A DNA stretch of 64,000 nucleotides from an uncultured Planctomycetaceae bacterium (lineage in GTDB: Bacteria > Planctomycetota > Planctomycetia > Planctomycetales > Planctomycetaceae): positions 1,461,110 through 1,525,109 of the forward strand of contig CAWFAK010000005.1 of the NCBI GenBank assembly GCA_963813715.1, given 5' to 3'. Made by a program: the position numbers and the translations under genes. The notes under the pieces were generated by a model. The model saw nothing but the letters and a program-made list of their open reading frames with translations, was not told where the DNA came from and searched no databases. Shown here piece after piece: positions 21,686 through 45,162 of this stretch (position 1 is the stretch's first letter; every line of letters begins with the position of its first letter).

Positions 21686-21921
21686 GTAGGGCAGGCTGTG
21701 TGTATAGACACTGTGCCTGCCGTCGGCTCTCGTGCGTGACGCGGGTCTCGCACGCTGACGGCGCTTCGTGGTTGTGTCAGAGCGCTTCGTCGCGTTAGAC
21801 CGTGAGTTCGAAACCGACACAATTACGCTCGTCTGTCGGCCGCGATTTCATTGGCTCAGCGTGGCGGGCGGCAGGCAGAGCCTGCCCTACAAGACTCGGT
21901 TACGGCGGATGGCGCGGGAGT

Positions 21922-22317
21922 TCAGCGGAGGAGATGGCGGTAGACGATCGGCGCGATCAGCACGCAGAGCGGCAACAGTCCGACGACCACAACCAGCAGG
22001 TAATCGCGTCTCGTCCTCGTGCGTCCGCGGGGGACGAAAGCCGTCAGCAACCAGCCGAACGACCAGCCGAAGCAACCGCCAAAAAGCCTCCCAACGAGGA
22101 CGAACGGCCGCGGCAGGTCGCGGTCGTCAACTGTCCGCCCTTTTGCCCGCAGGATGTCGGCTGCCTGCGCCTGTACTTGCACCTGTTGCCGGAGGTGAAA
22201 GTGGGCTCCCCAATACTCGCCGAGCACGGTGCCCACGACTCCGCACGAAAAGCCCAACAGGCAGCCTAACGCCCATAACGCCGGCTTTCTCGGCTTGTCG
22301 GTCTTCGCGTCGCTCAT
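21922..22317 (-). CDS. Small membrane protein; solitary member of the cassette-like family
   Basis: Starts MSDAK inside GCCGCTAGAATGACGGAATG; its stop is the TGA of TGAACTCCCG; three hydrophobic segments. Confidence 0.7.
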   Translation of the reverse strand: MSDAKTDKPRKPALWALGCLLGFSCGVVGTVLGEYWGAHFHLRQQVQVQAQAADILRAKGRTVDDRDLPRPFVLVGRLFGGCFGWSFGWLLTAFVPRGRTRTRRDYLLVVVVGLLPLCVLIAPIVYRHLLR

Positions 22318-22599
22318 TCCGTCATTCTAGCGGCCTTGCGCCCTCCCCCGGTCGCGCGAATCTTCGGCTTGGGATTTTGCTTGCCTTCCCCAACCGACAA
22401 GTCGCCGGGTGTTCGCAGATCGGGCCGCGGGCTCCCTAGGGCCGGCCCATCGACTGCGGCTCCAACATATCCCCACCGCCCCACAATCTCCCAACTTGTT
22501 TACACGCTCATAGAAACACGACCTTGTTCCATTTCCAGAATCCGCAAAATGGAGATAGGAGTCTTTTTTTCCGTGCAGTTCACAAGTTGAGAGTGTTGT

Positions 22600-24303
22600 A
22601 TGTCCGAGCGAAATGGGAATGGGCACATGCCCGAAAGTGGGGCGGCGGTTGGGGATCGGGTTAATGGCGAGACGCCGGCGGTCAGGCCCGATTTGACCGA
22701 TGCCCAGCGGGCGGAAGCTGTTCTGGAATGGGATCGCCGCTTCGAGGAGGCGCTGGTCGAGGTGCGGGCCAATTACGATCCGCAGGCTGAGGCAGCCAAG
22801 CTGGAGGGCCAGCCGGAGCCTGTGCGCGCCGGCCTCAATCGGCTGCGGGAGCTGGTCGTGCCGCCGAAGAAAGAGTTTCGGCTCTTTTCGGCCGCCCAGC
22901 TCAACTCGGGGCAGTACGAAACTCGCTATCTGGTCCGCGGCATTCTGGCGGCCGGGCAACCGGGAGGCATTTTCGGCGCCTTTAAGACGCTCAAAACGTC
23001 GCTGGCCGCCGACTTATTGATCTCGATCGCCAGCGGCACTCCCTTCCTCGGCCGCTTTCCCGTGCCGCAGCCGGGCCGCGTCCTCTTTCTCTCCGGCGAA
23101 TCGGGGTTGCCCGCGCTGCAGTCGATCGCCCGGCGGATCTGTGCCGAGCGCGGCCTGTCGCTGGAAAAACTCGACAATTTTGTCCTTTCGCCGGACTTGC
23201 CGCGGCTGGACCTGAGGTCCGACGTCGCGGCGCTCAAAAAACTCATCGAAGCCGAGCGGCCCGTCTGCGTGGTCATCGATCCGGCTTATCTCACGCTCGG
23301 CGGTGACAACGGCCGCAACCTGTTCGCGATGGGCTCGCTGTTGCGGCCGCTGGCCGAACTCTGCGAATCGACGGGCTGCACCGTGCTCGTCGTGCATCAC
23401 TGCAAACGCTCGCAAAAAGCGGGCGACCCGGCCACGCTCGACGACATCGCCTGGAGCGGCTTCGCCGAGTTCTCGGCCCAGTGGCTCCTGGTGTCCCGTC
23501 GCCGCCCCTTCGATCCGGCCACCGGGCACCACGAGCTGTGGCTGGGCGCGGGCAGCCGCGTCGGCAACCACGGCCTGTGGGAACTCGACGTCGACGAAGG
23601 CCGGCCGCACGAATTCTCGCTCGACGTTCGGCCCCACGGCCCGGTCGATGGTCCGCTCGACGATTCTCTTGCGGGCGAACACCGCGTCTGGAAAACGACC
23701 CTTCGCCCGGTGGCCGCGCTGCAACGGCAACTCGACGCGCAGTTCGTCGCGGCCAGCGAAGACCGCCGCCTCCGCCGCCGGGCGGCCACGTTCGACCGCC
23801 AAAAGCAACGCGTGCTCGAATTCCTCTCCGCCCACCCCAACGGCTGCAACGCCACCCAAATCCGCGAAGTGCTCGGCTTCAACGGCAACCGAATGAAACG
23901 GCTCCTGGACATGCTCTGCGACGACCGGCTCGCGCGGACCGAGGAAATCTACCACGACCGGCGGAAGGAAATTCTGTACCACCGCGTGCAGGTCATGGAT
24001 CTATCCGCCACCGCCATCCAATCCAACCGCGTCAGCCCAGTCGATGAAATGAAGTACGAGGTCCGGTCCGGACACTTTGTCGATCGACCGGCAGCGGGAC
24101 CGGACGACCGACGCCCACCCACGCCGCTGAACGCCGTCTCGCCGGTCAACGCGAGTTCCCCCCTTCGCCCACCGATTACCCGCGGCGAACAGCAACCGGT
24201 TCCCCAAAACGCCCTAACCGCACCGGGTGCAGGGGCGTTGCCCCTGCCCCTGCCGGGTCCGGACACTTTTGTGGGAATGGGGACCGACGCGGACCGGACG
24301 TAG
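22600..24303 (+). CDS. AAA_25 / RepA-like P-loop ATPase (helicase-like) with probable C-terminal winged HTH
   Basis: GGIFGAFKTLKT Walker A variant, VLFLSGE, VVIDP Walker B, LVVHH; C-terminal NATQIREVLGFNGNRMKRLL. Confidence 0.8.
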   Translation: MSERNGNGHMPESGAAVGDRVNGETPAVRPDLTDAQRAEAVLEWDRRFEEALVEVRANYDPQAEAAKLEGQPEPVRAGLNRLRELVVPPKKEFRLFSAAQLNSGQYETRYLVRGILAAGQPGGIFGAFKTLKTSLAADLLISIASGTPFLGRFPVPQPGRVLFLSGESGLPALQSIARRICAERGLSLEKLDNFVLSPDLPRLDLRSDVAALKKLIEAERPVCVVIDPAYLTLGGDNGRNLFAMGSLLRPLAELCESTGCTVLVVHHCKRSQKAGDPATLDDIAWSGFAEFSAQWLLVSRRRPFDPATGHHELWLGAGSRVGNHGLWELDVDEGRPHEFSLDVRPHGPVDGPLDDSLAGEHRVWKTTLRPVAALQRQLDAQFVAASEDRRLRRRAATFDRQKQRVLEFLSAHPNGCNATQIREVLGFNGNRMKRLLDMLCDDRLARTEEIYHDRRKEILYHRVQVMDLSATAIQSNRVSPVDEMKYEVRSGHFVDRPAAGPDDRRPPTPLNAVSPVNASSPLRPPITRGEQQPVPQNALTAPGAGALPLPLPGPDTFVGMGTDADRT

Positions 24304-24760: not shown

Positions 24761-25780
24761 TCAAGTGGGTTGCTGGCTGACTGAGTAGGGTTGGCCCGTC
24801 TTCAAGATCGCTGTCATCAGGCACAACAACCGGCGGGCCACGGCGACGATCGCCTTCTTGGCACGCACGCGCAACTTCAATCGTTCATAAATCCGACGCC
24901 AACGTAACGAGTGCTGAACCAGCCGCCAGGCGGCTTCGACCAGCGTCGAGCGCAGCAGCGTCGAACCGTTCTTCTCCAGGTGCAGCTCCCGACTCTTGCC
25001 CGCACTCTCGCGTTGACCCGGTGAGAGCCCCGCGTAAGCGACGACCCGCTTTTGCGAACCGAAGCGATCAATGTCTGCCAGCTCGGCCAGCACAACTTCG
25101 GTGGTCACGAAGCCCACTCCGGGGATCGTCCGCAACAGCGTCCGCGCTTCCTGCTCGCGAAGCGGCGCTGCCTCGGCGAACTCCTTCAGCCGGGCGTTGA
25201 CGGCCAGCAGCTGACGCCTCCCGAAGTGCAACTCTTCGACCATTTGATCCACGGCGAACCGATCCGCTCCCGAGAGGGGCACTTGGGCGAGATACGCCAA
25301 CCCCTCCACGGTGAACAGACTGGGGCGATCCGCGTTGTAGTCGCAGAGAATGCGGCGCAGACGGTTCTTGACGGAGGTCAATCGCCGTTGAACGCCGCCC
25401 CGCTGACGCACCAGTCGTCGATGCTCATGCTGCCGCGGAGTCGCGCGGTAAGACGTCGGAATCATGTCCAGAGCCAGGAACTCCGCGAGGATTTGCGCGT
25501 CGAGCCGATCGCTTTTACGCGTGCTCTCGGCAATCACACGCAGCTTCTTCGGGTGGGCCAACAACACGCGATGGGCCACGGGCTCGATCAATCGCACGAA
25601 CCATTCGTAGCTGGCGGTCGCTTCCACGACAGCCTCGAACTCCCCGAGCCTCTCGAAAAATGCGAGGATGGTCCGCTCTTCGCCACAACGCACGGTCCGA
25701 CGCTCCAAAACCCGCCGCGATTGGTCGACGACGCAAATCGTGATAGTCTGCTTGTGTAGGTCGCAGCCGGCAAATTTCAT
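24761..25780 (-). CDS. IS110 family transposase (DEDD recombinase)
   Basis: GCDLHK, VEAT and KSDRLDA RuvC-like residues; TIPGVG; AYAGLSPGQRESAGK serine wedge; AIVAVARRL. Confidence 0.95.
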   Translation of the reverse strand: MKFAGCDLHKQTITICVVDQSRRVLERRTVRCGEERTILAFFERLGEFEAVVEATASYEWFVRLIEPVAHRVLLAHPKKLRVIAESTRKSDRLDAQILAEFLALDMIPTSYRATPRQHEHRRLVRQRGGVQRRLTSVKNRLRRILCDYNADRPSLFTVEGLAYLAQVPLSGADRFAVDQMVEELHFGRRQLLAVNARLKEFAEAAPLREQEARTLLRTIPGVGFVTTEVVLAELADIDRFGSQKRVVAYAGLSPGQRESAGKSRELHLEKNGSTLLRSTLVEAAWRLVQHSLRWRRIYERLKLRVRAKKAIVAVARRLLCLMTAILKTGQPYSVSQQPT

Positions 25781-25957
25781 GGCGGTGTCCTTTTGTGGAA
25801 ACGGTTTGCAACAAACTCCGTTTACCACGTTCAAGCACAACCACCAACCGGCTCGGCCTACCTCTTACCGCTCCTCATAGCTTCACCCGTCGCGTAGTCC
25901 TGTAGTTTCGTAGGACAAGCTGGCAGCTTGTCCTGCGTGCGGGCACGGGACCAGCGG

Positions 25958-33391: not shown

Positions 33392-36300
33392 ATGGCACGA
33401 TGCAATCGATGTTGGTTGTCGCGTGGCACACCGCTTTGGTCGTTTTCTCACGTCGCTCGCACCGCGGCGATGGTCGGCCTGTTGCTCGCTTCCTGTCGAG
33501 CTTGGGGCGCACCGCCGTCATCTCCCGTCGCAATCGATCGCGATCTTCAGCAGCCCTTCGCGGAGGCTCAATCGCTCATCGGCCGCGGGCTCTTCACCGA
33601 CGCGATGCGCCTGTTGCAACCGATCCTGGGCGACTCGCAGAACAGGCTGGCGTTTCTCGACGGACGCTATGTCGACGCGAAAATTGCCGCCAATCGGCTG
33701 ATCGGCACCTTTCCTCGCACGGCGCTCGCCGCTTACGAAAAAGAGTTCGGCAAGGAGGCGAGCGACGACCTGCAACGGGCGCAAACCGCGGGCAAGGTCG
33801 AAGACGTCCTGCGGGTTTTCACGACGTATCGACACACGGCGGCCGGACTGCGTGCGCTGGCGGTCGCCGCCGGCATCTTTTTCGATCGCGGCCAGTTCAT
33901 GGAGGCGGCAGCTGCGAGCCGACAACTACTCGACCTGCCCGACGCAGCCGAGCAGCCTTCGGCAGCCGCGCGGCTCGTCTTGTCGTGGATGCGGCTGGGA
34001 GCAAGTGACCAGGCCCGCCGCTGGATCGACGGCCGGCGGACGGTCCTCGCCAACTCCCAGATCGAAGTCGAGGGCCATCGTTATCCGCTCGACCGCTGGC
34101 TGGACGAACTCTTGCGCCCGCGGCTGCGAGCGCGTCCGCTGTGACAAAATCGGCGCCCAGCGCCGGAGGCCACGCGCAGACGCTCGCCCCTTGGAACGCG
34201 CACACTCCCACCACGCTTTCGCTCTGGACCAAGCGGCTGAGCGGGACCGGCACCTCGGCGCGCTGATCGACGAACTGATCGCCCGGCGGGCCGCCTCCGG
34301 CATCGCCCCCGTTTTTCATGGAGTGCCGCTGGTCGTCGGTGAAACCTTGGTGGTGCGGACGGGCGACGAGCTGGCCGCCTACGAACTGGCGACCGGGCGC
34401 TCGCTCTGGTCGCACGATGTGTCGCCTCCCGGCGGCGGGTTCGAGGGGGGCGGCTTCCGCGACGTCACCATGCCCCTGGTGACAGAGACGCTGGCCGACC
34501 GGTTTTTCGCCGGCGCGCCGCACACGGCGATCTCCAGCGATGGCGAGCGGATTTTTACGGTCGTCGAGGATGTGGCGCCGTCGGTTCCCATGTTCTCGCG
34601 CCGCCGACGCTTCGCCGTCGAAACGCCGCCGAAGAACAGCCTGGTCGCGTTCGATTGGCTCACCGGCAAGCAGGTCTGGCGATTGTCGGACATCGAGGTC
34701 CCGGGGGCCGAATCGGCCGGCGACACGAGAGACGTCGATTTTCTCGGTCCGCCGTTGGCGCACTGTGGCATCTTGTATGTGCTCGCGCGTACCGAGGAGG
34801 CCGCTTACCTTCTGGCAGTTGGGCCGGCCGACGGAAAAGTGCGTTGGTCGCAAAACCTGGCCGGCTTCTCGGGCTTCGAGGCCGATTCGGTTTCCTGGTC
34901 GGGGCCCTCTTGCATGCCGCTCGAAAGCGAAGGGCTGCTTTTGTGCCCGACGCCCGACGGCTTGGTGATTGCCGTCGACCTGATCACGCACAGCGTGCGC
35001 TGGGCCTATCGCGTCGAGCCGGTGGAAGAACCGGCCCGTCGGCCTCCGCGCTGGGGGCGTGGCTTTGCCGGCGCCGAAGCACGTTGGCTTTCGACCTGGC
35101 GGGAAACGCTGATCCGTAGCGACGGCGCGCGCTGCTATTTCATTTCCCCGCGCTCGCCGCAGGTGCACGTGCTCGACAGCAGAGACGGGCAAAATCATCT
35201 GGACGCGACCAATTCCCGGCGGCCTGTTTCTGGGACCGGTCGAGCCGGGCGGACCGGGAGCGCCGGCCTCGCTGATTACTGTCGCCAAATACCGGGTGAA
35301 CGCTTGGGACGCGGCCACCGGCAAGCCCTTGTGGAGCGCTGCGGTCGGACTGCCCAGCGGCCGGGGCCTCGAGATCGATCGGCATTACTATCTTCCGTGC
35401 ACGAACGGAGCCGCGGTCGACGTCGATCTGCACAATGGCCGCGCCACGTCGGTCGTCACCGCGGGGAGCGACACGCTGGGCAATCTGGTTGCCGCACCGG
35501 ACGGGGCCGGAGTGGCGGTCGTCGCGCAGTCGCACGAGCAGCTCATCGTGCTGCCGACGCTCGAAGCACAGCGTCGCACGCTCGTGGCGAAAGTCGCCGA
35601 GCAGCCCGAGAATGTCGAATCTGCGGAATCGGCTGGCCCTCGTCGAACGCGAAGCCGGAGATTTCGAGAGTGCCGAGCGCCGTTTGGAAGCGTTAATCGC
35701 GGGGCCTCCGAAAAAGCCGGCAGGAGCGGGCAAGAAAACGGAGACGCCCGAGGCACCGCCCGCCCGCTTTCGCCACGAACTCTTGGAGACGATGCTGGCC
35801 GACCTGGAAGCGGTCGCCGGCTCGCGTGCGCGGCCCTGGCAGAGCGAGTACAGCGCAATACCGACTCGCAGCAATGGGCCCGGTCGCTGCGGACGCTGGC
35901 CCTGGCCCGCCAGTCCGCGGGCCAAACGGGCGGCGCCTTCGAGTTGCTGTTGGGTCTCGCCAAGTCGGACCTGCCGCCGACGCTCGAGGTCGATCGCGGT
36001 CCCGCTCGGGTCGGTCGCGTTCGATCGGCAGCTCCGCGCGGACCTGATGGATTTGCTCGCGGGGTCTTCCCTGCCCGCGTTTCGCGAGGCCCGCGCACAG
36101 CTCTTGAGGACTCTGCAAGCCGCCTTGGCCAGCGGCGATATCGAGACGCTGCGACGCGTCTCCGACCGGCTCGGTTTCGCCGAATGGGATCCGCGGCTGC
36201 GACAAAAGATCGAGGAAGCGCTGCGTCCCGATCCCGGCTACCAGAGGGAGCAGCTCACGCTCTGGGAAGAAGCGTTGCACCAGGACCGCACGCGCGGCGG

Positions 36301-37876
36301 CGAAGCCCTCCGCAAGTTGGCCGAACTTTACTTTTCGCGAGGCGAACGCAACCTGGCCGCCGGCTGCTACCGCCGCCTGCGCGATGATTTTGGCGACGTG
36401 CGATTTGCCGACGGGCTGAGCGCGCTCGACCTGGTTCGCCGCGTGCGAAAAGATCGCCGCCTGGCGGCCGAGATCGATCGGTCGCTGCCCGATCCGTGGC
36501 CGGCCGAACGGCCCCAGACTCAGGTCGAAAACAACACCGGCGCCGGCCCCAATTTCTTTCCGCTGCCGATGGAGAGCACGGCCGGCAGCGTCTTCGAGCG
36601 GATGGACGTGGCCCTCGATCGCGAAGGGAAGACGCTGCGATTCCAGGGAGAGCCGCGGCCCACGTCGTGGGACCTGACACTGCCCGTCGACACGCCGCCC
36701 TTTCGCGGGTTTCAGACGATTCATCGCGGCTGGGGAATCGGGCAGCTCCTGATCGTGCAGGACGGCGGCGATCTCTACGGCGTCACCCCGCTCGACGACG
36801 GCGGCGAGGCCAACCCGCGGCTGTTGTGGCACATCGACCTCTTGCCGGCCGAAGAAGTGGCGGCGAGCGAGATTGCGCTGCCGATGGGCCGCGGAATCGC
36901 CGGGCTGTTTACCGACCGCAGCTCGATGATCGATCATCTCGGGCGTCCGGCGGCGAAGATCGTGGCCGTGCAGCCCGGCGCCATCTGCTGTCTCGATCGC
37001 GGACGCCTGACCGCCTACGACCCGCTCACCGGGCGTCTGTTGTGGCGGAGAACCGATGCGTCACCGGTCGACTCGGGTTCGGGGGACGAATCACTTGTCG
37101 TCCTCTTGGACCGTCGGGCCAAGCGGGTCGAGTTTCTCCGCACGCTCGACGGCAAGCGGATCGCCGAGCGCCAGCTGGCCGCCAAGAGCTCGGAGGTGCA
37201 CTGGCTCGAAGGCCGCGACGCCCTGATTCAGTCGGTCGACCCGCGCGGGATGCGGGTCACGCGGATGGATCTGCTGGCCAACGAGATCAAATGGACTCAG
37301 GTCTTCGCCGCCGCCAGCCATCTCGTGCAGCTCGACGGGCGTCGTTACGCGGTGGCGGAGCCCGATGGCGCGTGCCACCTGATCAGCGCGACGACGGGTG
37401 ACCGGGTCACCACCGAAAACATTCCGGGCGTCGAGCACTGCCTGCAGGTTTACACGACGAGCGACGAACGGCGATTCTACGTCGCCTTCTCCAAGCCGTT
37501 CGCCGATTCGGAGAACTTTCGAGCAAACGGCCAGCGCGACAACGCGCGGAACCCGCTGGTCAACGGCATCATCTGCGCCTTCGACCGGCAGTCCGACAAG
37601 CTGCTCTGGAGCCGCCGCCTGGACGACGGTGTCTTCGAGCTCGACCAATCGCGCGTGGCCCCGGCCCTCGTCTTCTCCTATCGTCACATCGACAAGGGAG
37701 ACGACGACGTCCCCTGGCCCTACCTGCACGCCATCGACAAGCGCACGGGCCGCGATCTGATCCTGGCAAAGCTGAACAGCTCAGCGACCCACCCGTGGTC
37801 CGAAGTCGACACAACCCGCCGCGAAGTCCAGGTCCGCGTGCCGGAAGCGACGGTCCACATCCAGTACGCGAAGTGA
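33392..37876 (+). CDS. Large PQQ-like beta-propeller/TPR protein, several frameshifts
   Basis: Repeated D/L-xxTG-xxxW propeller motifs across frames 33266-34144, 33852-35696, 35296-36387 and 35435-37876; start uncertain. Confidence 0.75.
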
Positions 37877-37915
37877 GGCGCGAGCGTTCATTCCGTCCCG
37901 GTCGTGGGGGCGCAT

Positions 37916-37952
37916 CCTGGACGAGAGTTGCGGATTGGGACGGTAGTCCAGG
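37916..37952. repeat. 37-bp cassette-end element (CCTGGAC-N23-GTCCAGG)
   Basis: Perfect 7-bp inverted arms; spacer aligns with the copies at 41702 and 42508. Confidence 0.75.
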
Positions 37953-37958
37953 GCCATG

Positions 37959-38213
37959 TTAGGGACTTAGGCGCCGGATGATGTTACTGATCGTGTCGTA
38001 GACTTGCGGATTTCTTCCGGCCAGCCATTCGACCGGCGCATAAAAGTACGCCACAGCCCGGCATACGGATCCCCCGTCGGCGACGGCTCCATAGTGGAGA
38101 AGCCATCTGAGCGCGACCGCTGATGGGACGACGCTGAAAGTGTAAATGAATGCCACAGCCGGAGCCGCCCAGCCGATCCACGCCCACGACCGTTTCCTCG
38201 GTTCGTCGCTCAT
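37959..38213 (-). CDS. Small membrane protein MSDEPRKR... (cassette family)
   Basis: Starts in the full CCGCTAGAATGACGGCATG motif; TM segment; similar to 41753-41983. Confidence 0.8.
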   Translation of the reverse strand: MSDEPRKRSWAWIGWAAPAVAFIYTFSVVPSAVALRWLLHYGAVADGGSVCRAVAYFYAPVEWLAGRNPQVYDTISNIIRRLSP

Positions 38214-38835
38214 GCCGTCATTCTAGCGGCGGATTGGTGCCATTCTCGTATCCCAGGTCCATGTGCAGCGACCTGGTCCGGTACTGACGTGCCTAGGCAT
38301 GGTGAGGGTCGCCGGGAAGTGCGAATCGATCGGGTCTTAAGACGCCGCCAACGAAGGATCGTCAACGAAAATCTCGCGCGACCGGGCGGGTCCGCCGAAA
38401 TTCGGTCAACAGGCATCCCCTATACCAGGAGAGGTTGTACGGACCGCATTTTCAAAAGGAGCGTCCGGACCAGCCCCTCTCTCCGATTGCAGCCCGTCGG
38501 GCCTGTTTTCGACCTTGGCCTTTCCGACCTGGGACTTCCCCGTGTCGCGTCCCAATCTGTCCCGTCCCGACCTGCGATCGGAGGTTCGGTCACGAATTTC
38601 GTGGGTCACCTTACCGTGAAAAAATTCGTGACCCAACCCACCGTGTTTTCCCCTATGCCATTTCGCTCTACCCCATTCCGCTCAACCCCCGCGCGCAAAG
38701 AGTCCGCTCTCTCCATTCAGCCACAAAAACGAGATCCGTCCAAGATCAGTTTTCTTGGAATCCGCGATTGTGGATCCGCATCGTCGAGTGGGACTGCGGC
38801 ATCGATTCCTGGACTCAAGCCCCGCCACTGAATTT

Positions 38836-38932
38836 GAGCCCCGCCAAGGGGCGTCAGAAAATAGCCCAGCGTTTCAACCCTAGCTAAGCCGGCCCACAAA
38901 AAAGTCTCCGAAGCCCCGCCAGGGGCGACAGA
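38836..38932 (+). repeat. REP-like doublet GCCCCGCCA(A)GGGGC
   Basis: Two direct copies of the hairpin flank TAGCCCAG...CAACCCT. Confidence 0.6.
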
Positions 38933-38986
38933 ACGCTCGTTTCCCACGAGTTCCGAGCGTCGCGAGATGGCTGTGTTTCGCCGGTT

Positions 38987-40435
38987 TTAGGGCGAACGAA
39001 GCGATTCAAAGAGCGGCGCCCGTTTTGTTGCCCCGCGTTTTGTGGCATCCGGGTCCGTGACTGATCCGAGCATTTGCCGCACGATGTCGCCGACGTCCTG
39101 CCGTAGCGTCGGCGAGTAACCGACTCGCAAATCATGGACATTTCCCCGCTGGTCGATGATCACCAGAGTTGGAAAGCCCGGCACGCCGTACTTGTTTGGC
39201 AGATCCTGTCTGACTTTGAGAGTCGCATAATTGAGCCCTGCCTTCTCGACGACGAACTGGGCGTCGGCTACATCCGTGTCGGTGTTCATACCGAGCACGA
39301 CCACAGGTTGTCCCTGAAAGTCTGCCACCAACCCTTTGATTTGAGGCATCGCCCGGATGCACCAGCCGCAGCCCCGATACCAGAAGTCGAGGATCACGAT
39401 CTGGCCCCGATACGCCTTGAGAGAATGCAGCTTGCCCTCGAGGTTCCGAGCTTCCCAGTCGGCCGCTGGGTGTCCGACGATCTCTGCCCGGCGATTCGCG
39501 TCGTGGATTGAGCGCGCTGCCAGGTCGTCGTGGCTCTTGAGCTGCTGATCCAATTGCCGCTTCACGATCGGAACGCTTGCCGCTTGACGGGCCTCCACGA
39601 GCAGCGCCTTCGCCTCATCCAGCAGCCTCTTGCTGGAATTCTTATCTCTTGATGCTTGTCGGATCCTTTCCTTGTAGGCACGGTCGGCCTGGAAGTAGTG
39701 CTCGGCCTGTTCCGACAGCTGCTTGATCCACTGCGCGTCGCGGTCTTCGACTGATACCAGTTCCGCAGTCCCGTTTCCTTTGCCTTTGAAACCCCAGCCC
39801 TCGGTGTCCTCGTGTCGTTCCTTCGTGACGAGGCCGCGCTTCCAATCGAATGTCACCGTGCGTGTATGTGTCCTGAGACGGACCTCGTCGGTCAAGCTTT
39901 TGCGCCGCTCCTCGAAAATCCAGGCGCCGGCCTTGGTCTCGGAATTCGAGACGACCCTGAAAGACGAACGCCCGCCCTCGTTCTCGTCGATTCTCTCCCA
40001 GACACTCGCGACCTCCATGCGATTGGCGGGCAGTCGTGGAAACAGGTACGTCGGATCGATGCCGGCGCTTAAAGACGGATTCGGGACGAACCGCCCGTCG
40101 CTGAAGATGTCGCAGTAGACCAAAGGGGATTCAGCGGAGGGGCGATCCTTGCCATCGCGACGGAACGACTCCGCAGTTCGGATCACGACGCGGTGACTGC
40201 CGTCGTCGTTCTTTCGGAGAACCCAAATTTTCCACTCTTTGTGGACCTCGAAACGGCCGCCTTCGAATTTGAAGTCGTTGCTGCTCGCGTACGTGATCTC
40301 CCGGCCGACCTCGAGACGGTAGCGGGGCAAGGCAGCGTCGGGATCCGTAACAACGGCAACTGGCATTTGGCTTGCCGACGCGAGCCCCGCAAGCAACCCG
40401 ACGAAAACGTGCCAAGAGGGAATCGACCGAGCCAT
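38987..40435 (-). CDS. Secreted TlpA-like thioredoxin (redoxin) protein with a long N-terminal domain
   Basis: Signal peptide; C-terminal LDFWYRGCGWC, GFPTLVIIDQRG; GAGGAG RBS before ATG 40435. Confidence 0.85.
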   Translation of the reverse strand: MARSIPSWHVFVGLLAGLASASQMPVAVVTDPDAALPRYRLEVGREITYASSNDFKFEGGRFEVHKEWKIWVLRKNDDGSHRVVIRTAESFRRDGKDRPSAESPLVYCDIFSDGRFVPNPSLSAGIDPTYLFPRLPANRMEVASVWERIDENEGGRSSFRVVSNSETKAGAWIFEERRKSLTDEVRLRTHTRTVTFDWKRGLVTKERHEDTEGWGFKGKGNGTAELVSVEDRDAQWIKQLSEQAEHYFQADRAYKERIRQASRDKNSSKRLLDEAKALLVEARQAASVPIVKRQLDQQLKSHDDLAARSIHDANRRAEIVGHPAADWEARNLEGKLHSLKAYRGQIVILDFWYRGCGWCIRAMPQIKGLVADFQGQPVVVLGMNTDTDVADAQFVVEKAGLNYATLKVRQDLPNKYGVPGFPTLVIIDQRGNVHDLRVGYSPTLRQDVGDIVRQMLGSVTDPDATKRGATKRAPLFESLRSP

Positions 40436-40528
40436 CGGGCGCTCCTCAGCTTCATGCTGCCATTCTAGCCTCGGCAGTGAGGCCGCATCCTGAGCGAAAG
40501 TTGCGTTGGACACGGGAGTTTGGAAAAG

Positions 40529-40822
40529 TCAGCCGCAATTAATTCTGGCCGGCCGTCGCAGCCAATCTCTGATTCCAATGAGTAGACCGAAGATCCCGCC
40601 GATCGATGCCTGCCACAAAACGGTCGTCCAGCGCCGCGGCGGAATCAGGAAAGAAGTCCGGCCGACGATTGCGCCGATGATTACGATGTTGCTAGCGATG
40701 TCCCAAGCGGCATTTTTCAGAGGGCGCGCCGGCTTACGTTTGGGCTCTACTTCCAGGCTGACAACCGCAACGGGCTGCCAGCACGATTCGACTGAGTCGA
40801 GTCTCTTCGGTTCGTCGTTCAT
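40529..40822 (-). CDS. Small membrane protein MNDEPKR... (cassette family, 97 aa)
   Basis: Starts in GAATGACGGCATG; two hydrophobic segments; followed by a degenerate 37-bp element. Confidence 0.7.
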   Translation of the reverse strand: MNDEPKRLDSVESCWQPVAVVSLEVEPKRKPARPLKNAAWDIASNIVIIGAIVGRTSFLIPPRRWTTVLWQASIGGIFGLLIGIRDWLRRPARINCG

Positions 40823-40826
40823 GCCG

Positions 40827-41369
40827 TCATTCCGGGGGCGAGTTTTGTGTCGGTCCACGGACTTCTGATTTTGGCTCTCGTGCGGTGAGGAGCCAGGCGC
40901 CCGCTTGCTTTCGGAATCCAAATAGTTGAACCACTTTATCTTTGCTCCTCGGAGAGCGAGGCGTCCAGATCGTGTGGATCGCCGCTTGCAAGTGGCGGGC
41001 GGTCCTCGCCGGGACCGCGACGCGGAAGATGAGACATCGCCGTCCCGTTCGGCCCGGCTCCCAGTCCTCTCCCGTCCACGCTAAGCGCTCGGACCAGGTG
41101 AATTCAGGTGAAGCCCGATACGCAGAGCCGGTCACGGTTTTGTTGTATCCGAACGGCCATGCGAAGCCGCCGTCAGCCGTCCAACGGATCGGACGATGCG
41201 GGCTGATCCAATGATGGCAGCAGCCGACCTCGGCATACACCTCGGTGCGCGCCTCCGCCGCCGCGTCTGCCGCCTCTGCCAAGAGTGTGCGGATCGCGAC
41301 CTCCCAGAGTTGGGGATCGTCGTCAGCCGAGAGGTGTTCGGCAATGATTGCGAGGGCGGCGTTGCTCAT
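40827..41369 (-). CDS. Hypothetical protein (180 aa)
   Basis: Trp-rich globular-looking ORF; its TGA stop is part of the next TGACGGCATG motif. Confidence 0.65.
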   Translation of the reverse strand: MSNAALAIIAEHLSADDDPQLWEVAIRTLLAEAADAAAEARTEVYAEVGCCHHWISPHRPIRWTADGGFAWPFGYNKTVTGSAYRASPEFTWSERLAWTGEDWEPGRTGRRCLIFRVAVPARTARHLQAAIHTIWTPRSPRSKDKVVQLFGFRKQAGAWLLTAREPKSEVRGPTQNSPPE

Positions 41370-41413
41370 GCCTGCACAAACCCATTCAGTAGCCCCACCA
41401 GCCGCTCATGCGG

Positions 41414-41644
41414 TCATTCCCGGTGGTTGGCACGGAAGTTTATCGCGGCGCATTGGAACCAGCGGATAGCGGTTGAGACACTCAGCCAAATGAGAACGAG
41501 GAACAAGGCGTCGAACGGCAACCAAAATAAGATTTCGCCGCCCACATGAAGGGTGTTAATCTTGAAGAACCGTCCGGCGCAGTCGCAGCATGCGCCCAGA
41601 GCGCTTGCATAGAGTAATAACCTGCTCGGCTGCGGGATCCTCAT
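41414..41644 (-). CDS. Small membrane protein (cassette family, 76 aa)
   Basis: Starts in the full motif and ends in GAATGACCGCATG. Confidence 0.65.
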   Translation of the reverse strand: MRIPQPSRLLLYASALGACCDCAGRFFKINTLHVGGEILFWLPFDALFLVLIWLSVSTAIRWFQCAAINFRANHRE

Positions 41645-41738
41645 GCCGTCATTCTAGCGGCGGATTTCCGCGCACGGAAAACCCCGGGTAATCGGCCGCA
41701 CCCTGAACGAAAGTGGGCGATTGACACGGGAGTTCATG
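41641..41738 (-). repeat. About 95-bp inter-cassette repeat, copy 1
   Basis: Aligns along its length with 42446-42544; contains the 37-bp IR element and the TAGAAT-GACGGC-ATG motif. Confidence 0.9.
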
Positions 41739-41752
41739 GATCAGTGACTGAC

Positions 41753-41983
41753 TTAGTCCACCAATAAAGGTATCGGTTCCTCGCGGTTTGCAGTGGCCTT
41801 TAAGAGACGCGTCACCCATTTAATGGGCCAGTAGATGATCTGATAGGGTTTGAGAACCAGACCGGTGTCGTCGACACAATTGAGCAAAGTCGCTGGCCCG
41901 TACGTAGCCGGGTACAGCGCAAACAGCAAAAGCACGACCCACCAGATCCACGGCCGCGCTCGTTTCTTCGGTTCGTCGCTCAT
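41753..41983 (-). CDS. Small membrane protein MSDEPKKR...LYPATYGP (cassette family)
   Basis: Starts in TGACGGCATG; TM segment; paralogous to 37959-38213. Confidence 0.8.
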   Translation of the reverse strand: MSDEPKKRARPWIWWVVLLLFALYPATYGPATLLNCVDDTGLVLKPYQIIYWPIKWVTRLLKATANREEPIPLLVD

Positions 41984-41987
41984 GCCG

Positions 41988-42230
41988 TCACTTCCGGAGC
42001 GACCTCAGGTCGGCGACGAGTCCGAGGGTTCCAAGTAGCGAGGCAGCGGCAGCAGCCAGGATCAATCCGGAATCGCGTTGAGCGATACCAACGCATAATA
42101 AGATCATGGCACCGCCGAATCCCGAGATCCAATACTTGATCCACCTCATCGCGCCCCACGGCTTCGGGTCTAGTGCGTTGTTGGATTGCCAGCGGGCTTC
42201 CGTGGCTTCGTGGTCGGGAGGGTCATTTAT
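41988..42230 (-). CDS. Small 2-TM protein with motif start ATA instead of ATG (internal ATG at 42149)
   Basis: TGACGGC-ATA-AAT-GAC-CCT opens an 80-codon frame that ends at the TGA of the next TGACGGCATG; absent from the ORF track. Confidence 0.6.
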   Translation of the reverse strand: MNDPPDHEATEARWQSNNALDPKPWGAMRWIKYWISGFGGAMILLCVGIAQRDSGLILAAAAASLLGTLGLVADLRSLRK

Positions 42231-42260
42231 GCCGTCACGCTTGCGGTTGGCACGGGGACT

Positions 42261-42449
42261 TCAGCGGCTGCGTCGGGCCACTCGGAAGGCGAAAGCGAGA
42301 TTGAAACCGAAGAAGACCGTTGCTCCGACCAGCGCCGCTGGAGTAGGAGAGCCCGTTGGGCCGTGCGAGAACTTCCACATTGCCCAAGAGGCGATGCCCG
42401 TGGCCACGGACAGCCAGTGCCACACCGGATGGCGGTTCTCGTCGCTCAT
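42261..42449 (-). CDS. Small 2-TM protein MSDENR... (cassette family)
   Basis: Starts in the full motif; its stop begins TGAAGTCCCCGTGCCAA, a variant of the cassette-end element. Confidence 0.75.
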   Translation of the reverse strand: MSDENRHPVWHWLSVATGIASWAMWKFSHGPTGSPTPAALVGATVFFGFNLAFAFRVARRSR

Positions 42450-42544
42450 GCCGTCATTCTAGCGGCAGATTTCCGCGCATGGAAAACCCCCGGGTCATGG
42501 GCCGCACGCTGAACGAAAGTTGGCGATTGCCATGGGAGTTCAGC
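42446..42544 (-). repeat. About 95-bp inter-cassette repeat, copy 2
   Basis: GCTGAAC-N23-GTTCAGC at 42508-42544 plus the start motif. Confidence 0.9.
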
Positions 42545-42746
42545 GGCGCAGATTGACCGCTTCAAGATAGTGGATCAACTGATCGACGTGCAGGGCCTCT
42601 TTGAGTCGGTGCGTTCCGATGAAGACGTGTTCCAGATAAGCCAAGCTGAGGAGCAGAACCGGTACGAGCAGGATGCAACAAGCGACCATCAACGGCGATC
42701 CGATCAATCGGACGAATGAAGGAGATTTTGCGTCGTCTGTGCTCAT
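42540..42746 (-). CDS. Small single-TM protein MSTDD... (cassette family)
   Basis: Starts CGGCATGAGC; its stop is the TGA of TGAACTCCC. Confidence 0.72.
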   Translation of the reverse strand: MSTDDAKSPSFVRLIGSPLMVACCILLVPVLLLSLAYLEHVFIGTHRLKEALHVDQLIHYLEAVNLRR

Positions 42747-42782
42747 GCCGCCGTCCTCAGTATGGCGCGGGAGTTCGACCGC

Positions 42783-42929
42783 TCACTCGCGAGCGCCAGA
42801 AGGGAGCCACCCGAGCCAGCCCTCGCGTTCGAGCCACACATAGAGCGCGGTCATTGCGACCAGAACGAGCAAGGGAATGACAAGCTGCATTACCAAGGGC
42901 CTCCAAAGACGATCGCGTGCTCCGCTCAT
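42783..42929 (-). CDS. 48-aa single-TM peptide MSGARDRLWRPLVMQLVIPLLVLVAMTALYVWLEREGWLGWLPSGARE
   Basis: Translated by hand; starts in the full motif; followed by GAACTCCCGCGCCAT. Confidence 0.65.
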   Translation of the reverse strand: MSGARDRLWRPLVMQLVIPLLVLVAMTALYVWLEREGWLGWLPSGARE

Positions 42930-43032
42930 GCCGTCATTCTAGCGGCGGATTGCCCCTCCGTGATCTTGCGGAAAACTCGGCCGAAAGTCGTCACCCGCCG
43001 TCCACAGGTTAACGAGCGTCGCGCCGGGCGGC

Positions 43033-43066
43033 AAAAAGAAAACCGGCCAGCAGTCGCTGGCCGGTT
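43033..43066 (-). terminator. Rho-independent terminator between the DUF1598-like gene and the array
   Basis: AACCGGCCAGC-loop-GCTGGCCGGTT stem followed by a U-rich tract on the minus strand. Confidence 0.75.
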
Positions 43067-43101
43067 CGTCTAGCTTGGTGTGGCGTTTGTCGTCTCGCCG
43101 C

Positions 43102-45162
43102 TTAGTTGCTCTTCGCGTCCCACCACCAGCGGCCTTCCGGCAGCTGCGGGGCGACGCCCTTGGACTTCTCGGCAGTCAGCGTGGGCGACTCGCGGAAGAC
43201 CTTGTGGTCTTCCAGGACGGTCCGCATGCGGCCGTCGACTCCGCCGGCCACCTGCACCACGATGTCTTTGCCGTTGTAGACCCGGTGGTTGACGACCGAT
43301 TGGATCGTCTTGGGCGGCTGGAAGGTGGCGGGCTGGTAAGCGCCGTTGGCGGCGAAGACGCCCAGGTTCCAACCGATGCGGTCCGGAACGCGGTTGTCCG
43401 AGAGCAGGGCCGCGACGAGCGACAGGTCGAAAATGTTCTGCAGATCGGCGAACACCGGATCGTCGGCGGCCAGCTCGGCATAGTGATCGGTGAATTCGGT
43501 GGCGAACAGCCGGTTGGCCACTTCCGACGTGCCGGTGTGAATCCGCTGGCCCTTGGCCGAAATGCGTTCGTTCTCGGACTGGCAGAGGACGGCCGAGCCT
43601 TCGATCTGGAACACGTTCCGATCGGGGCTATGGGTCACCGCGTCGTACTTCATCGAGAGCCACCACCGCAGGGCGTCCATTTTCGCGCTCTTCACTTCAC
43701 CCGTCTTCGGGATGATGTCGAAGTAGCTGGGGATGCCGTGTCCGGCGTGCAACTTGCCGATGCCGATCATCTTCAGCCGATAGTCGGCCTCGAAGATCAC
43801 CTGGGCGATGCGGGACTCGACCGGCACGCCGTTGATTTCGACGTCCTGCAGTCCCAGCTCGCGCTGCAGTTGCTTGGTCCAGTTGCTCACCTGACCGGCG
43901 TCGAGCGGGCCGCGGGCGTTCGATTCCTGCACGAACTGCTGGATGCGACGCAGGCCTTCTTCACGGGGCAGAATCTGGCAGTTGAAGTAGCCGGAGCCGC
44001 GCGGCGAGAAGGTCCGCAGCACGGTCACCAGGTCGTCCAGGAACAGGCTCGGACGAGCGCTTTCGCGGGCGACGGCGCGACCGCTGGCGTCGTACTTCCA
44101 ACCCTCGGCCGGACCGCCGATGACGACTTCATTCTGATCGGGATAAACGAAGACGTACTTGATCTGGGTGAGACCCGCCAGGTGCTGCATCGTTTCGGGA
44201 ACGCTGTGCCCCTCGGCCAGCTTCTTCGCCAGTTCTTTCTCGAGGCGCGTCAGCGAGACCAGACGCAACGAGCTCTTGGCCCGCATGTCGGTGTTGATGT
44301 CGGCTTCGCGAGCGCGATGGCCGAGGCCCGACAGCGTCTGCCCTTTTTCCTCGTGCGTCAGACCGCGGAGCAGGCCGTTCGGATCGACTTCGATACCGGG
44401 GGGCCAGTAGATGGGCGTCTTCTTGGCTTCGTCGGTGTCTTCCCAGTCGGTCTCCGTTCCGGTGACCGTCTTGATCAGGCTGACCAGCTGAGCGGCGCTC
44501 GCGGCGCCACCGGCGGCCGATTGGCGAGCGGCCGTGTTCGCGGCCCCGGCTCGCTCACGCGATTCGGGAATCGGAATGCGGCTGATCGAGCGGTCGGCGG
44601 CAACATAGTCGCCGCTCTTCGCTTGGGCGGCAGCGATCGACTTCAACAGCGACGTGCGTTCGGCCGCATCGTTCGCGGATTTCGCAGTTTCCAGTGCGGG
44701 TCCAAACTCGCCCGCCGCCAGTTGCGCTTCGACGCGCGAACGGCGCTGGGCTGCAGTCAGCGAGGTTCCTTGAGGAGCGACCGGGGCGGGCTTGGCCGCC
44801 GTCACCACCTGGCTGTCATTCGCGGGATGCGACGAGTGAGACGCCACGGCGGCGGAGTGCGTCGTCTTCGACGGAGCGGTCTGAGCGGCAGGCAGGCTCG
44901 CCGGTTCAGCCGTCGCGGCCAGTTGCGACGATGATGCGGACGTTGCCGACGGGGCCGATTGCATCGGCCGCAGCGCCAAGAAGCCGATCAAGCCCAAAAC
45001 GGCTACGCCTGCGAGCACGGAGACGACGATCGGACCTCCGCTGGAACGACGACGAGAGCTGCGCCGGGCGCGGAATTCCTGGGCGAACGACGTGACATCC
45101 CCATCTCCAATGTGTCTCGGACAGATTTGTCTGGAACGTTGGCGGGCCCAGCCAAACGTCAT
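43102..45162 (-). CDS. DUF1598-like planctomycete protein
   Basis: LRLVSLTRLE, LAGLTQIKYVFVYP, EADYRLKMIG and LQNIFD motifs; N-terminal TM; start uncertain. Confidence 0.78.
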   Translation of the reverse strand: MTFGWARQRSRQICPRHIGDGDVTSFAQEFRARRSSRRRSSGGPIVVSVLAGVAVLGLIGFLALRPMQSAPSATSASSSQLAATAEPASLPAAQTAPSKTTHSAAVASHSSHPANDSQVVTAAKPAPVAPQGTSLTAAQRRSRVEAQLAAGEFGPALETAKSANDAAERTSLLKSIAAAQAKSGDYVAADRSISRIPIPESRERAGAANTAARQSAAGGAASAAQLVSLIKTVTGTETDWEDTDEAKKTPIYWPPGIEVDPNGLLRGLTHEEKGQTLSGLGHRAREADINTDMRAKSSLRLVSLTRLEKELAKKLAEGHSVPETMQHLAGLTQIKYVFVYPDQNEVVIGGPAEGWKYDASGRAVARESARPSLFLDDLVTVLRTFSPRGSGYFNCQILPREEGLRRIQQFVQESNARGPLDAGQVSNWTKQLQRELGLQDVEINGVPVESRIAQVIFEADYRLKMIGIGKLHAGHGIPSYFDIIPKTGEVKSAKMDALRWWLSMKYDAVTHSPDRNVFQIEGSAVLCQSENERISAKGQRIHTGTSEVANRLFATEFTDHYAELAADDPVFADLQNIFDLSLVAALLSDNRVPDRIGWNLGVFAANGAYQPATFQPPKTIQSVVNHRVYNGKDIVVQVAGGVDGRMRTVLEDHKVFRESPTLTAEKSKGVAPQLPEGRWWWDAKSN

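Follow-up and report, generated by a model that had tools for sequence, protein, structure and literature searches.

A chromosomal junction repeat with a shared coding head and a shared tail at small-gene cassettes of an uncultured Planctomycetaceae genus

We analysed a 64,000-nucleotide stretch of DNA (hereafter the window) from an uncultured Planctomycetaceae bacterium (GenBank assembly GCA_963813715.1, contig CAWFAK010000005.1, positions 1,461,110 to 1,525,109), in which a 37-bp element with inverted ends had been noticed behind several small open reading frames (ORFs). The array of small ORFs lies between a convergent PQQ_2 gene (35435-37876, plus strand) and a gene for a 686-aa protein with the planctomycete domain DUF1598 (43102-45162, minus strand). 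All small ORFs of the array are on the minus strand, and on the gene strand the element therefore trails one ORF and leads into the next. We found that it belongs to a genus-restricted repeat of two modules, which are fixed in orientation and position at the stops and starts of genes with unrelated cargo, and that cassettes between these modules have been gained, lost and replaced with endpoints inside the modules.

The genome (G000; the window is the end of its contig C5) is represented by a 7.49-Mb assembly with 63% G+C and 82.6% completeness. For comparison we used 11 congeners, giving a genus set of 12 genomes, and 29 genomes from outside the genus. All relatives were metagenome-assembled genomes (MAGs), the assemblies were 65-98% complete, and the flanking proteins across the genus were 41-98% identical to those of this genome.

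The three inverted repeats of 7+23+7 nt that the initial annotation had reported were all present (plus strand: GCTGAAC-N23-GTTCAGC at 42508-42544, CCTGAAC-N23-GTTCATG at 41702-41738 and CCTGGAC-N23-GTCCAGG at 37916-37952), as were a decayed copy and half-copies behind the ORFs ending at 42783, 42261 and 21922. TGAAC-N23-GTTCA occurred twice in the window versus 0.02 times expected, and none of 100 shuffles reached two. The 37 bp did not prove to be the conserved unit, however. The best-conserved part was an 18-mer, AACTCCCGTGCCAATCGC on the gene strand, found in one orientation at or just past a stop codon. Over 157 copies, anchored on the central 12-mer only and drawn from this genome and 21 loci of seven congeners, the majority base reached 92-99% at core positions 2-13, 75% at the two leading As and 55-79% at positions 14-17, and dropped to 32-46% at positions 26-32, where the distal arm is located. 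A fuzzy 34-nt pattern matched 10 copies genome-wide, with similarity continuing beyond the 37-mer into ...GATGCGCCCCCACTACC, and an nhmmer profile recovered the same 10 copies and about 10 partial ones. The 37-mer thus opens a longer 3' box of about 49 nt, which has a fixed orientation and comprises an 18-nt core and a 31-nt tail in several variants. With up to two mismatches the core was found 29 times in this genome versus 0 times for a reversed control pattern, and in 11 of 11 congeners with 1-36 copies each. The 29 genomes outside the genus showed 0-3 matches each, all at two mismatches and near the control level. Several species with flanking proteins no more than about 41-83% identical to those of this genome also had zero-mismatch 18-mers, which speaks for some function or a continual renewal of the copies. 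No match was found at any element in an Rfam scan of 20000-46000 (E up to 1), and none to the junction in phage and plasmid collections. None of three motif strings was found in the papers searched, and the best 15 of 29 literature hits on intergenic repetitive elements or leaderless genes of Planctomycetes held nothing relevant.

The tails were compared in 112 copies, comprising all cores with up to two mismatches and two more-diverged window copies added by hand. In 28 of them (variant a) the core was directly followed by the next gene start, TGAGGTGACGGC-ATG, forming a short junction. It was followed by GAAAAACCGTGATTCAAACACGGACACTACC in 31 (variant b), by CAACTTTCGTCCAGGATGCGCCCCCACTACC, which corresponds to the previously described spacer and distal arm, in 20 (variant c), by ...CGCTTTTCAAACGCGCCCACTACC in 11 (variant d) and by a tail opening with CGGAATTC in three (variant e); 19 copies had none of these behind the core. 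The stop codon began 1-3 nt ahead of the core in 93 of 109 copies, 56 of these being TGA at -2, and the leading core bases often belong to the stop codon. In the window, the claim that the stop overlaps the element held for three of the eight ORFs with a core at or near the 3' end (21922-22317, 42261-42449 and 42540-42746) and failed for the other five, four of which stop 6-20 nt ahead of the element while ORF 41414-41644 runs in frame through a core copy. An ATG of the 5' module described below was found within 600 nt upstream of the core in 92 of 108 copies (mostly at 151-450 nt) and downstream in 65 of 108, and the frame ending at the core-adjacent stop opened with this module in 34 of 107. 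Seen from the other end, 50 of 144 module-started ORFs stopped exactly at the core and two beyond its start, six ran into the next start module before stopping, and 86 had their stop elsewhere, in a few cases with a core 10-15 nt further on. About a third of the cassettes end with a 3' box. Several boxes at other loci are trailed by a dispersed repeat, CCGGTCCGGACACTTTCGTTTGCAC...GAGACCGGCGG (G000 C5:559.6 kb, C5:657.3 kb, C7:437.1 kb and C8:493.6 kb; L068:799-1531). At the second island, in the comparison with G002 (see below), this repeat makes up some 730 bp of tandem copies.

Each small ORF was preceded by a second repeat, the 5' module, whose promoter-type form is GCCGCTAGAATGACGGC-ATGAGCGACGAACC. 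It consists of TAGAAT, which resembles a -10 box, or GAGGTG, a Shine-Dalgarno (SD) sequence, followed by GACGGC and then by ATGAGCGACGAACC(GAAG), which encodes MSDEP(K). The promoter-type module occurred six times in the window versus 0.01 times expected and 41 times genome-wide at up to three mismatches. Its 20-mer GACGGCATGAGCGACGAACC was found 38 times in this genome, in 11 of 11 congeners with 2-60 copies each, and outside the genus in four of the 29 genomes with one two-mismatch match each. Most cassettes carry, by prediction, either TAGAAT or an SD; TAGAAT ends 6 nt ahead of the ATG, a spacing that would be the expected geometry of a leaderless message, and inside arrays GAGGTG takes its place. 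A compact junction of about 50 nt, TGAACTCCCGTGCCAATCGCTGAGGTGACGGCATGA, reads as TGA in all three frames followed by SD and ATG. The two modules showed no inverted or direct similarity beyond chance (best local score of the 5' module against the reverse complement of the 3' box 6; 1506 of 2000 shuffles as high).

Further roles for the core at the junction were considered and rejected. As a -35 element of an extracytoplasmic function (ECF) sigma factor, with TGAAC paired to a CGTC -10, its spacing of 22 nt is too long for the ECF consensus; ECF sigma genes occurred in about five of 33 loci scanned, which may be chance. As a general -35 element of the next promoter it failed, being fused to TAGAAT at a suitable distance in only about five copies by eye, and mRNA pairing between the 5' module and the core amounted to only about 4 bp, likewise by eye. 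A separate hairpin repeat, (G)AAGCCCCGCCAGGGGCGACA, is present in the window at 38837-38884 (minus strand) and about 38911-38935, and further copies stand upstream of the module at G000 C3:74.8 kb and C16:111 kb. The only hit of the Rfam scan, a match to Acido-Lenti-1 below threshold (27.1 bits, gathering score 37, E = 0.018), falls on one copy. Y1-transposase-like genes have similar copies in their vicinity, and the two may therefore form a pair of a repetitive extragenic palindrome (REP) with a REP-associated tyrosine transposase (REP/RAYT type).

The cargo between the modules was diverse. After removal of the first eight residues, 144 ORFs of at least 30 aa that open with the 5' module in the sampled loci fell into 89 BLASTP clusters (E up to 1e-4), of which the largest had 31 members and 72 were singletons. 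The 31-member family is characterised by MSDEPKKR, a membrane helix with YPLSxGP, and YxP. Only one of 142 cargo ORFs had a Pfam match above the cut-off (DUF3553). The composition was coding-like, with G+C at third codon positions (GC3) exceeding that at second positions in 136 of 144, and 105 of 144 held a transmembrane-like segment (an uncharged hydrophobic 19-mer). GC3 of the window cassettes was 0.66-0.74 versus about 0.80-0.86 for most neighbouring genes. An alignment of 24 members of the main family had a mean column identity of 32% among paralogues, yet residues 1-5 (MSDEP) were at least 90% conserved with identical codons. This pattern points to homogenisation or to selection acting at the DNA level at the gene start. 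The pattern M[SN][DE]EPK[KRN]RS matched 40 stretches across one genome each of 185,579 species, and the 20 confirmed relatives were all MAG records titled "Planctomycetaceae bacterium". In the Atlas, all clusters matched by the main family were labelled "hypothetical protein" and came from Planctomycetota. The head common to the cassettes, MSDEPKKR, offers a separate lead, for example as a targeting or topology tag.

The initial annotation had placed the element at the 3' ends of cassette ORFs, and this was borne out. It sits behind cassette-like ORFs of one direction, and those cassettes turn over between genomes. The gap between the PQQ_2 and DUF1598 genes measured 5232 bp here, 761 bp in G002, 604 bp in G007, 152 bp in G003, 76 bp in G010, 2126 bp in G006 and 2827 bp in G009, and among these seven genomes only G000 and G002 had cores or modules in it. 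G002 is the closest relative, the two flanking proteins being 88% and 98% identical. Its DNA aligned to window positions 37473-38235 (93.8% identity) and then to 42439-42750 (91.3%), and the two alignments overlapped by 33 nt that correspond to the 5' module. The window therefore holds 4.2 kb of extra DNA, exchanged inside two module copies. Cassette 42783-42929 represents a second difference to G002, again with endpoints in 5' modules. At a second syntenic island (G000 C5:556-561 kb), G000 contained 1.3 kb of extra cassettes between two GACGGCATGAGC copies, and one cassette was replaced, with homology running through the 5' module at the left and resuming in the 3'-box tail at the right. The endpoints of all four G000/G002 events at the two loci thus fall in junction repeats. 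A 362-bp cassette (104 aa) that begins precisely with one 5' module and finishes where the following module ends was 99.4% identical between G006 and G007 (L045:5405-5766 and L050:2939-3300) despite unrelated flanks, which suggests a recent transfer of a single cassette. Among six inter-species segments of at least 150 bp with at least 93% identity (all sampled loci, counting pairs other than G000/G002), three ended at 5' modules on both sides and the other three were judged to be insertion sequence (IS) copies or shared synteny. A 10.5-kb island on G000 C15 had no syntenic copy in G002, where only junction repeats, IS copies and one or two cassettes recurred.

The islands also contain IS1-like, IS4/5, IS630 and IS110 transposases, a group II intron reverse transcriptase, one serine recombinase, a PIN/HTH pair, ECF sigma factors and defence-like genes. 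A Pfam search of 130 island ORFs yielded no recombinase recurring next to the arrays (IS1-like, IS4/5, IS630 and the one serine recombinase). Inside the block missing from G002, a 508-aa protein (38987-40513, minus strand) has a C-terminal AhpC/TSA-thioredoxin domain and a GC3 of 0.72, below that of the backbone genes. The isolated cassette 21922-22317 lies about 2.4 kb from an IS110-family transposase (24761-25840, minus strand; DEDD_Tnp_IS110 and Transposase_20). Beside both lies a 567-aa protein (22600-24303, plus strand) that matches AAA_25 and, weakly, MarR_2, which could point to a small mobile island. A further stretch, L065:37-257 (G000 C15:100.0-100.3 kb), matched some 40-50 places in G002 at 75-98% identity and represents another abundant repeat of the genus.

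Table 1. Junction modules, cassettes and the variable block in the window
Feature	Position	Strand	Remarks
Isolated core copy	21905..21922	-	Overlaps TGA of ORF 21922-22317, whose 5' module is 22304-22334
Divergent 3' box, variant c, of the array's last cassette	37916..37952	-	6 nt past TAA of ORF 37959-38213; abuts the convergent PQQ_2 gene; 7 mismatches in 34
Cassette ORF, 84 aa, of the MSDEPKKR...YPLSxGP...YxP small membrane-protein family	37959..38213	-	Family shared with ORF 41753-41983
5' module, promoter type (GCCGCTAGAATGACGGC + ATGAGCGACGAACC), of cassette 37959-38213	38200..38230	-	Left crossover zone of the 4.2-kb difference to G002
4.2-kb block missing from G002	38236..42438	-	Non-coding DNA, thioredoxin-like gene 38987-40513, cassettes between 40529 and 42449
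Decayed 3' box, core 40503-40520	40489..40525	-	3 mismatches, one-base shift; behind ORF 40529-40822
5' module, 1-3 mismatches, of cassette 40529-40822	40809..40839	-	
Core copy, 3 mismatches	41423..41440	-	ORF 41414-41644 reads through in frame; degenerate 5' module next
3' box, variant c, core 41717-41734	41702..41738	-	Begins 14 nt past stop of ORF 41753-41983; fold z -0.25
5' module (GACGGC + ATGAGCGACGAACC, without TAGAAT) of cassette 41753-41983	41970..41989	-	
Core variant	42243..42260	-	Overlapped by TGA of ORF 42261-42449; runs straight into a start module that is degenerate, giving a short junction
5' module, promoter type, of cassette 42261-42449	42436..42466	-	Right crossover zone of the 4.2-kb difference to G002; sole sigma-70-like site found by scan
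3' box, variant c, 18-nt core 42523-42540	42508..42544	-	TGA of ORF 42540-42746 overlaps first bases; best palindrome of the initial annotation; fold z -4.87
Cassette ORF, 68 aa	42540..42746	-	In G000 and G002; promoter-type module ahead in G002, SD-type junction in G000
Core variant in short SD-type junction	42760..42775	-	Between ORF 42783-42929 and ORF 42540-42746
5' module, promoter type, of cassette 42783-42929	42916..42946	-	Cassette missing from G002

The main proposal of the initial annotation was that the arms form a palindromic operator for a dimeric protein, compensatory changes preserving its symmetry. At the fixed distance of 23 nt, six or seven arm positions are indeed complementary in three copies of the window and in one of G003. 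Over the 112 copies, however, the distal arm was missing in 92, Watson-Crick pairs averaged 4.5 of 7 in variant c and 1.5-2.6 in the other variants, and all seven pairs were formed in only two copies, both in the window. In an alignment of 23 variant-c copies (including three with three core mismatches and omitting the frame-shifted 40489 copy), 70.2% of the arm cells were paired versus 68.8% with shuffled 3' partners, and 29 of 500 shuffles did as well. The column pair claimed to be compensatory (5-33) was A-U in six copies, G-C in one, namely the 37916 copy of the window, and unpaired in 16. The true register outperformed registers slid by one to three columns (3-36% paired) because the consensus arms CTGAAC and GTCCAG are complementary at five of six positions, so that consensus sequences account for the pairing, and the distal-arm columns are the least conserved of the element. 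No arm covariation was found in the enlarged copy set, an outcome that the initial annotation had named beforehand as refuting it. In RNA folding, three of 12 copies were better than their own shuffles (z = -4.87, -2.87 and -2.44), while the other nine ranged from -0.25 to +1.38. The G002 orthologue of the best window copy (GCTGACC...GTTCAGG) carries an uncompensated arm change and folds no better than its shuffles (z = +0.98). In the G002 orthologue of the 37916 copy, one arm has a changed base and the other an extra base. The spacer length was indeed constant, as had been claimed, but its constancy results from the conserved spacer sequence (88% mean column identity in the variant-c alignment); exceptions were the orthologue of the 37916 copy, with its 1-nt insertion, and the 40489 copy, which is one base off. 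Taken together, we regard an operator of this kind as very unlikely. We infer that the three window copies owe their palindromic arms to the chance makeup of one tail variant; the palindrome is incidental and does not represent a new type of binding site. The symmetric-site reading and that of a miniature attC are not supported, whereas the reading as a cassette end is.

The core itself is not a dyad and has no conserved structure. Only the long variants of the 3' box form an imperfect hairpin, and the window copies have no long stem. The stem (CACTACC...GGTAGTG, TTTCAAA...TTTGAAA) has the form TTTCAAAC..CCCACTACC - loop - GGTAGTGGG..GTTTGAAA (e.g. L065 at C15:108.7 kb, L055:5067, L052:6543 and L058:15214). 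As read off the sequences, its T-G oppositions pair only in sense-strand RNA, and in some copies at other loci it is followed by a TTTT run. It could be a terminator or a structured 3' untranslated region (3'-UTR).

From these data, and by analogy with the promoter-early stem-loop (PeSL) cassettes of T4-type phages, as the abstracts of the phage studies present them, we lean, with moderate confidence, towards the composite junction being both an expression punctuation and a homology tract for cassette shuffling, PeSL-like in kind but located in the chromosome. As a portable punctuation it would end the translation of one gene and restart the expression of the next by means of stops in all frames, a hairpin in some variants, a promoter-like box or SD, and a fixed start. 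It would at the same time provide a homology tract of 20-50 nt where general recombination could add, delete and swap cassettes, and the 3' box would travel with its cassette and lengthen the shared tract.

Several observations weigh against this explanation. The congener loci were picked for their richness in core matches, and the association counts therefore describe arrays. The 3' box is dispensable, as 86 of 144 module ORFs do not stop at a core. Both endpoints lay in 5' modules in three of the four G000/G002 events and the 3' box was an endpoint in one only, so that its own role in recombination is weakly supported. Between the 42508 copy and its G002 orthologue, four of 37 nt differ; at 89% identity, the copy is not better conserved than the segment around it (91.3%). 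A consensus scan of 37800-43150 found one promoter-like site versus 1.3 expected (TTTCCA-18-TAGAAT before ORF 42261-42449). Of the eight terminator-like sites (G+C-rich stem and T run) in the same interval none coincided with an element, for which reason we rejected an intrinsic terminator at the window elements. None of 20 public sequencing runs listed, two of them RNA, covered as much as half of the window, and four of the runs matched it with short contigs. RNA contigs span 37832-38168 and 37925-38216 and give a weak hint that cassette 37959-38213 is expressed; these are contigs only, whose ends cannot show transcript ends, and contig joints at 5' modules, such as PeSL-type mini-circles from recombination of adjacent repeats would give, cannot be told from other copies of the repeat. 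Finally, the occurrence of a shared head and a shared tail on unrelated ORFs is not accounted for as to its origin.

The same data can be read in other ways. The 3' box, alone or with the 5' module, might be an att-like site of some recombinase, cassettes being excised as circles and re-inserted, in which case it would be a functional analogue of attC. The near invariance of the 18-mer over 11 species with flanking proteins of only 41-98% identity would fit such a site, as would the boundary of conservation exactly at the stop codon, the location of the arrays in islands rich in mobile elements, and the nearly identical cassette of G006 and G007, which is bounded by module copies as expected for a circle with one junction. 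Clusters of attC sites that lack an integrase were common in the survey as presented in part of the IntegronFinder paper (PMC4889954). We nevertheless consider an att-like site unlikely, as none of the 12 genus genomes had an IntI above the cut-off (best 116.5 bits versus 265), no recombinase family recurred beside the arrays, the core lacks a dyad and any inverted-repeat relation to the 5' module, and most mapped endpoints were in the 5' module rather than the core. The strictly single, sense-strand orientation of the core directly behind stop codons would also suit a signal in the 3'-UTR or intercistronic mRNA, for instance one where an RNA-binding protein binds or an RNase cleaves, or one that governs the formation of transcript ends, stability or translational coupling to the next ORF. 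The 28 copies that lie 4-12 nt ahead of the next gene's SD and ATG, and the many long variants that run into the stem with T-G oppositions, are compatible with this. The core has no conserved structure and matches no Rfam family, though, and the long stem is missing from the window copies, which leaves an RNA signal improbable too.

The 3' box might also have no function of its own and be a hitch-hiking remnant of the 3' flank of an ancestral cassette, copied whenever the adjoining 5' module recombines or duplicates. Individual copies do decay (37916 and 40489 in the window), the orthologous copy was no better conserved than its surroundings, and both the 86 cassette ORFs stopping away from a core and the preponderance of endpoints in the 5' module would be expected of a passenger. 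Neutral decay would, however, hardly leave zero-mismatch 18-mers in distant species without constant renewal of the copies, and the frame relation to stops is non-random, with 50 ORFs stopping at the core start versus two beyond it; we judge a mere passenger to be quite unlikely.

A farther-reaching possibility, which we put forward tentatively and hold to be less probable than not, is that of a gene-cassette system that works without an integrase in a free-living bacterium. In each genome, dozens of small, mutually unrelated genes for membrane proteins of no known family would share a promoter or SD, the MSDEPKKR tag and a 3' box. With the 5' module as their boundary, these units would be passed on within a species and from one species to another, possibly as circles with one junction each, the 3' box being the cassette-borne half of the exchange site. 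Such a system would parallel both integrons and phage PeSLs, on a chromosome, and would allow new small proteins to be tried out. One uncultured soil genus keeps two short DNA modules near-invariant while the flanking proteins are as low as about 41-67% identical, and between the modules lie fast-changing, tiny and mostly membrane proteins of no known family, with 89 clusters in the sampled DNA alone. If the modules drive exchange without a dedicated integrase, phage-style modular shuffling would extend to bacterial chromosomes, and the array would represent a concrete locus for studying how bacteria acquire, express and test new small genes.

The arrays resemble those of integrons, including attC-site clusters without an integron integrase (CALINs), in that small ORFs of one direction and mostly unknown function each have a repeat behind them, beginning at the stop codon or overlapping it. 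As in integrons, repeats of one lineage resemble each other, the arrays contain toxin-antitoxin genes and IS copies, and close relatives differ in cassette content. The outer core of attC sites has the consensus RYYYAAC ... GTTRRRY. As to its R''/R' arms, nCTGAAC fits at most six of seven positions of this consensus, and the distal arm, found in 20 of 112 copies, has the consensus GTCCAGG, unlike GTTRRRY. According to part of the IntegronFinder paper (PMC4889954), attC sites fold into an imperfect hairpin that contains R and L boxes, central spacers left unpaired, extrahelical bases and a terminal structure that varies, and integron cassettes rarely contain promoters. The element studied here is, in contrast, not paired throughout: only seven arm pairs surround an unpaired stretch of 23 nt, there is no paired stem of R and L boxes, three of 12 copies fold better than shuffles, and covariation was absent. 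The attC rule of structure over sequence is reversed, as core positions 2-13 are nearly identical in sequence over the 157 copies with no common structure. No IntI (TIGR02249, cut-off 265 bits) was found in the 12 genus genomes, these assemblies being 65-98% complete; the best score was 116.5 bits, and that of this genome 78.2 bits. The cassettes described here bring their own start module with a predicted promoter-like box or SD, and most mapped exchange endpoints lie at this 5' module. All of this speaks against the suggestion of a miniature attC analogue.

Other kinds of repeat were also compared. REP sequences and bacterial interspersed mosaic elements (BIMEs) are likewise short, located downstream of genes and present in tens of copies per genome, and the long variants share the imperfect hairpin; the core described here differs in being non-palindromic and tied to one gene class and its stop codons. 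The genome contains eight matches to Y1_Tnp (Y1-transposase-like). A miniature inverted-repeat transposable element (MITE) was rejected, as the 5' module and 3' box do not form terminal inverted repeats (score 6, as above). The upstream-homology-box (UHB) genes on the Borrelia cp32 plasmids, reportedly described by Marconi et al. in 1996, are said to be divergent genes that share an upstream region and the start of a leader peptide, where recombination yields variants. They are a few plasmid or prophage lipoprotein genes per pathogen replicon and are not known to share a 3' box. In contrast, dozens of chromosomal ORFs of no known family per genome share the head described here, and a tail as well.

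The closest working analogue appears to be the PeSL. The abstracts of the phage studies (Arbiol et al. 2010, PMC2839356; Comeau et al. 2014, PMC4122927) describe PeSLs as short composite regulatory repeats between small, mostly unknown and non-essential genes in hypervariable regions, where close relatives differ by indels and replacements with endpoints in the repeats and recombination between repeats has been proposed. As in that description, the repeats of the Planctomycetaceae genus lie between small genes in variable regions, and the endpoints of indels and replacements fall in them (four of four G000/G002 events, the G006/G007 cassette and three of six inter-species segments). What is repeated here is a junction with a predicted -10-like box or SD and, in the long variants only, a hairpin. 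Unlike PeSLs, which reside in hyperplastic regions of T4-type phages, the system is located in dispersed islands of a bacterial chromosome with chromosomal flanking genes, it matched no phage or plasmid collection, its repeat reaches into the coding sequence so that the first 5-8 codons (MSDEPKKR) are shared, and a separate, sequence-conserved box at the stop codon stands in place of an obligatory stem-loop. We take it to be a junction repeat for modular gene shuffling that is here chromosomal and joins a shared coding head to a shared tail.

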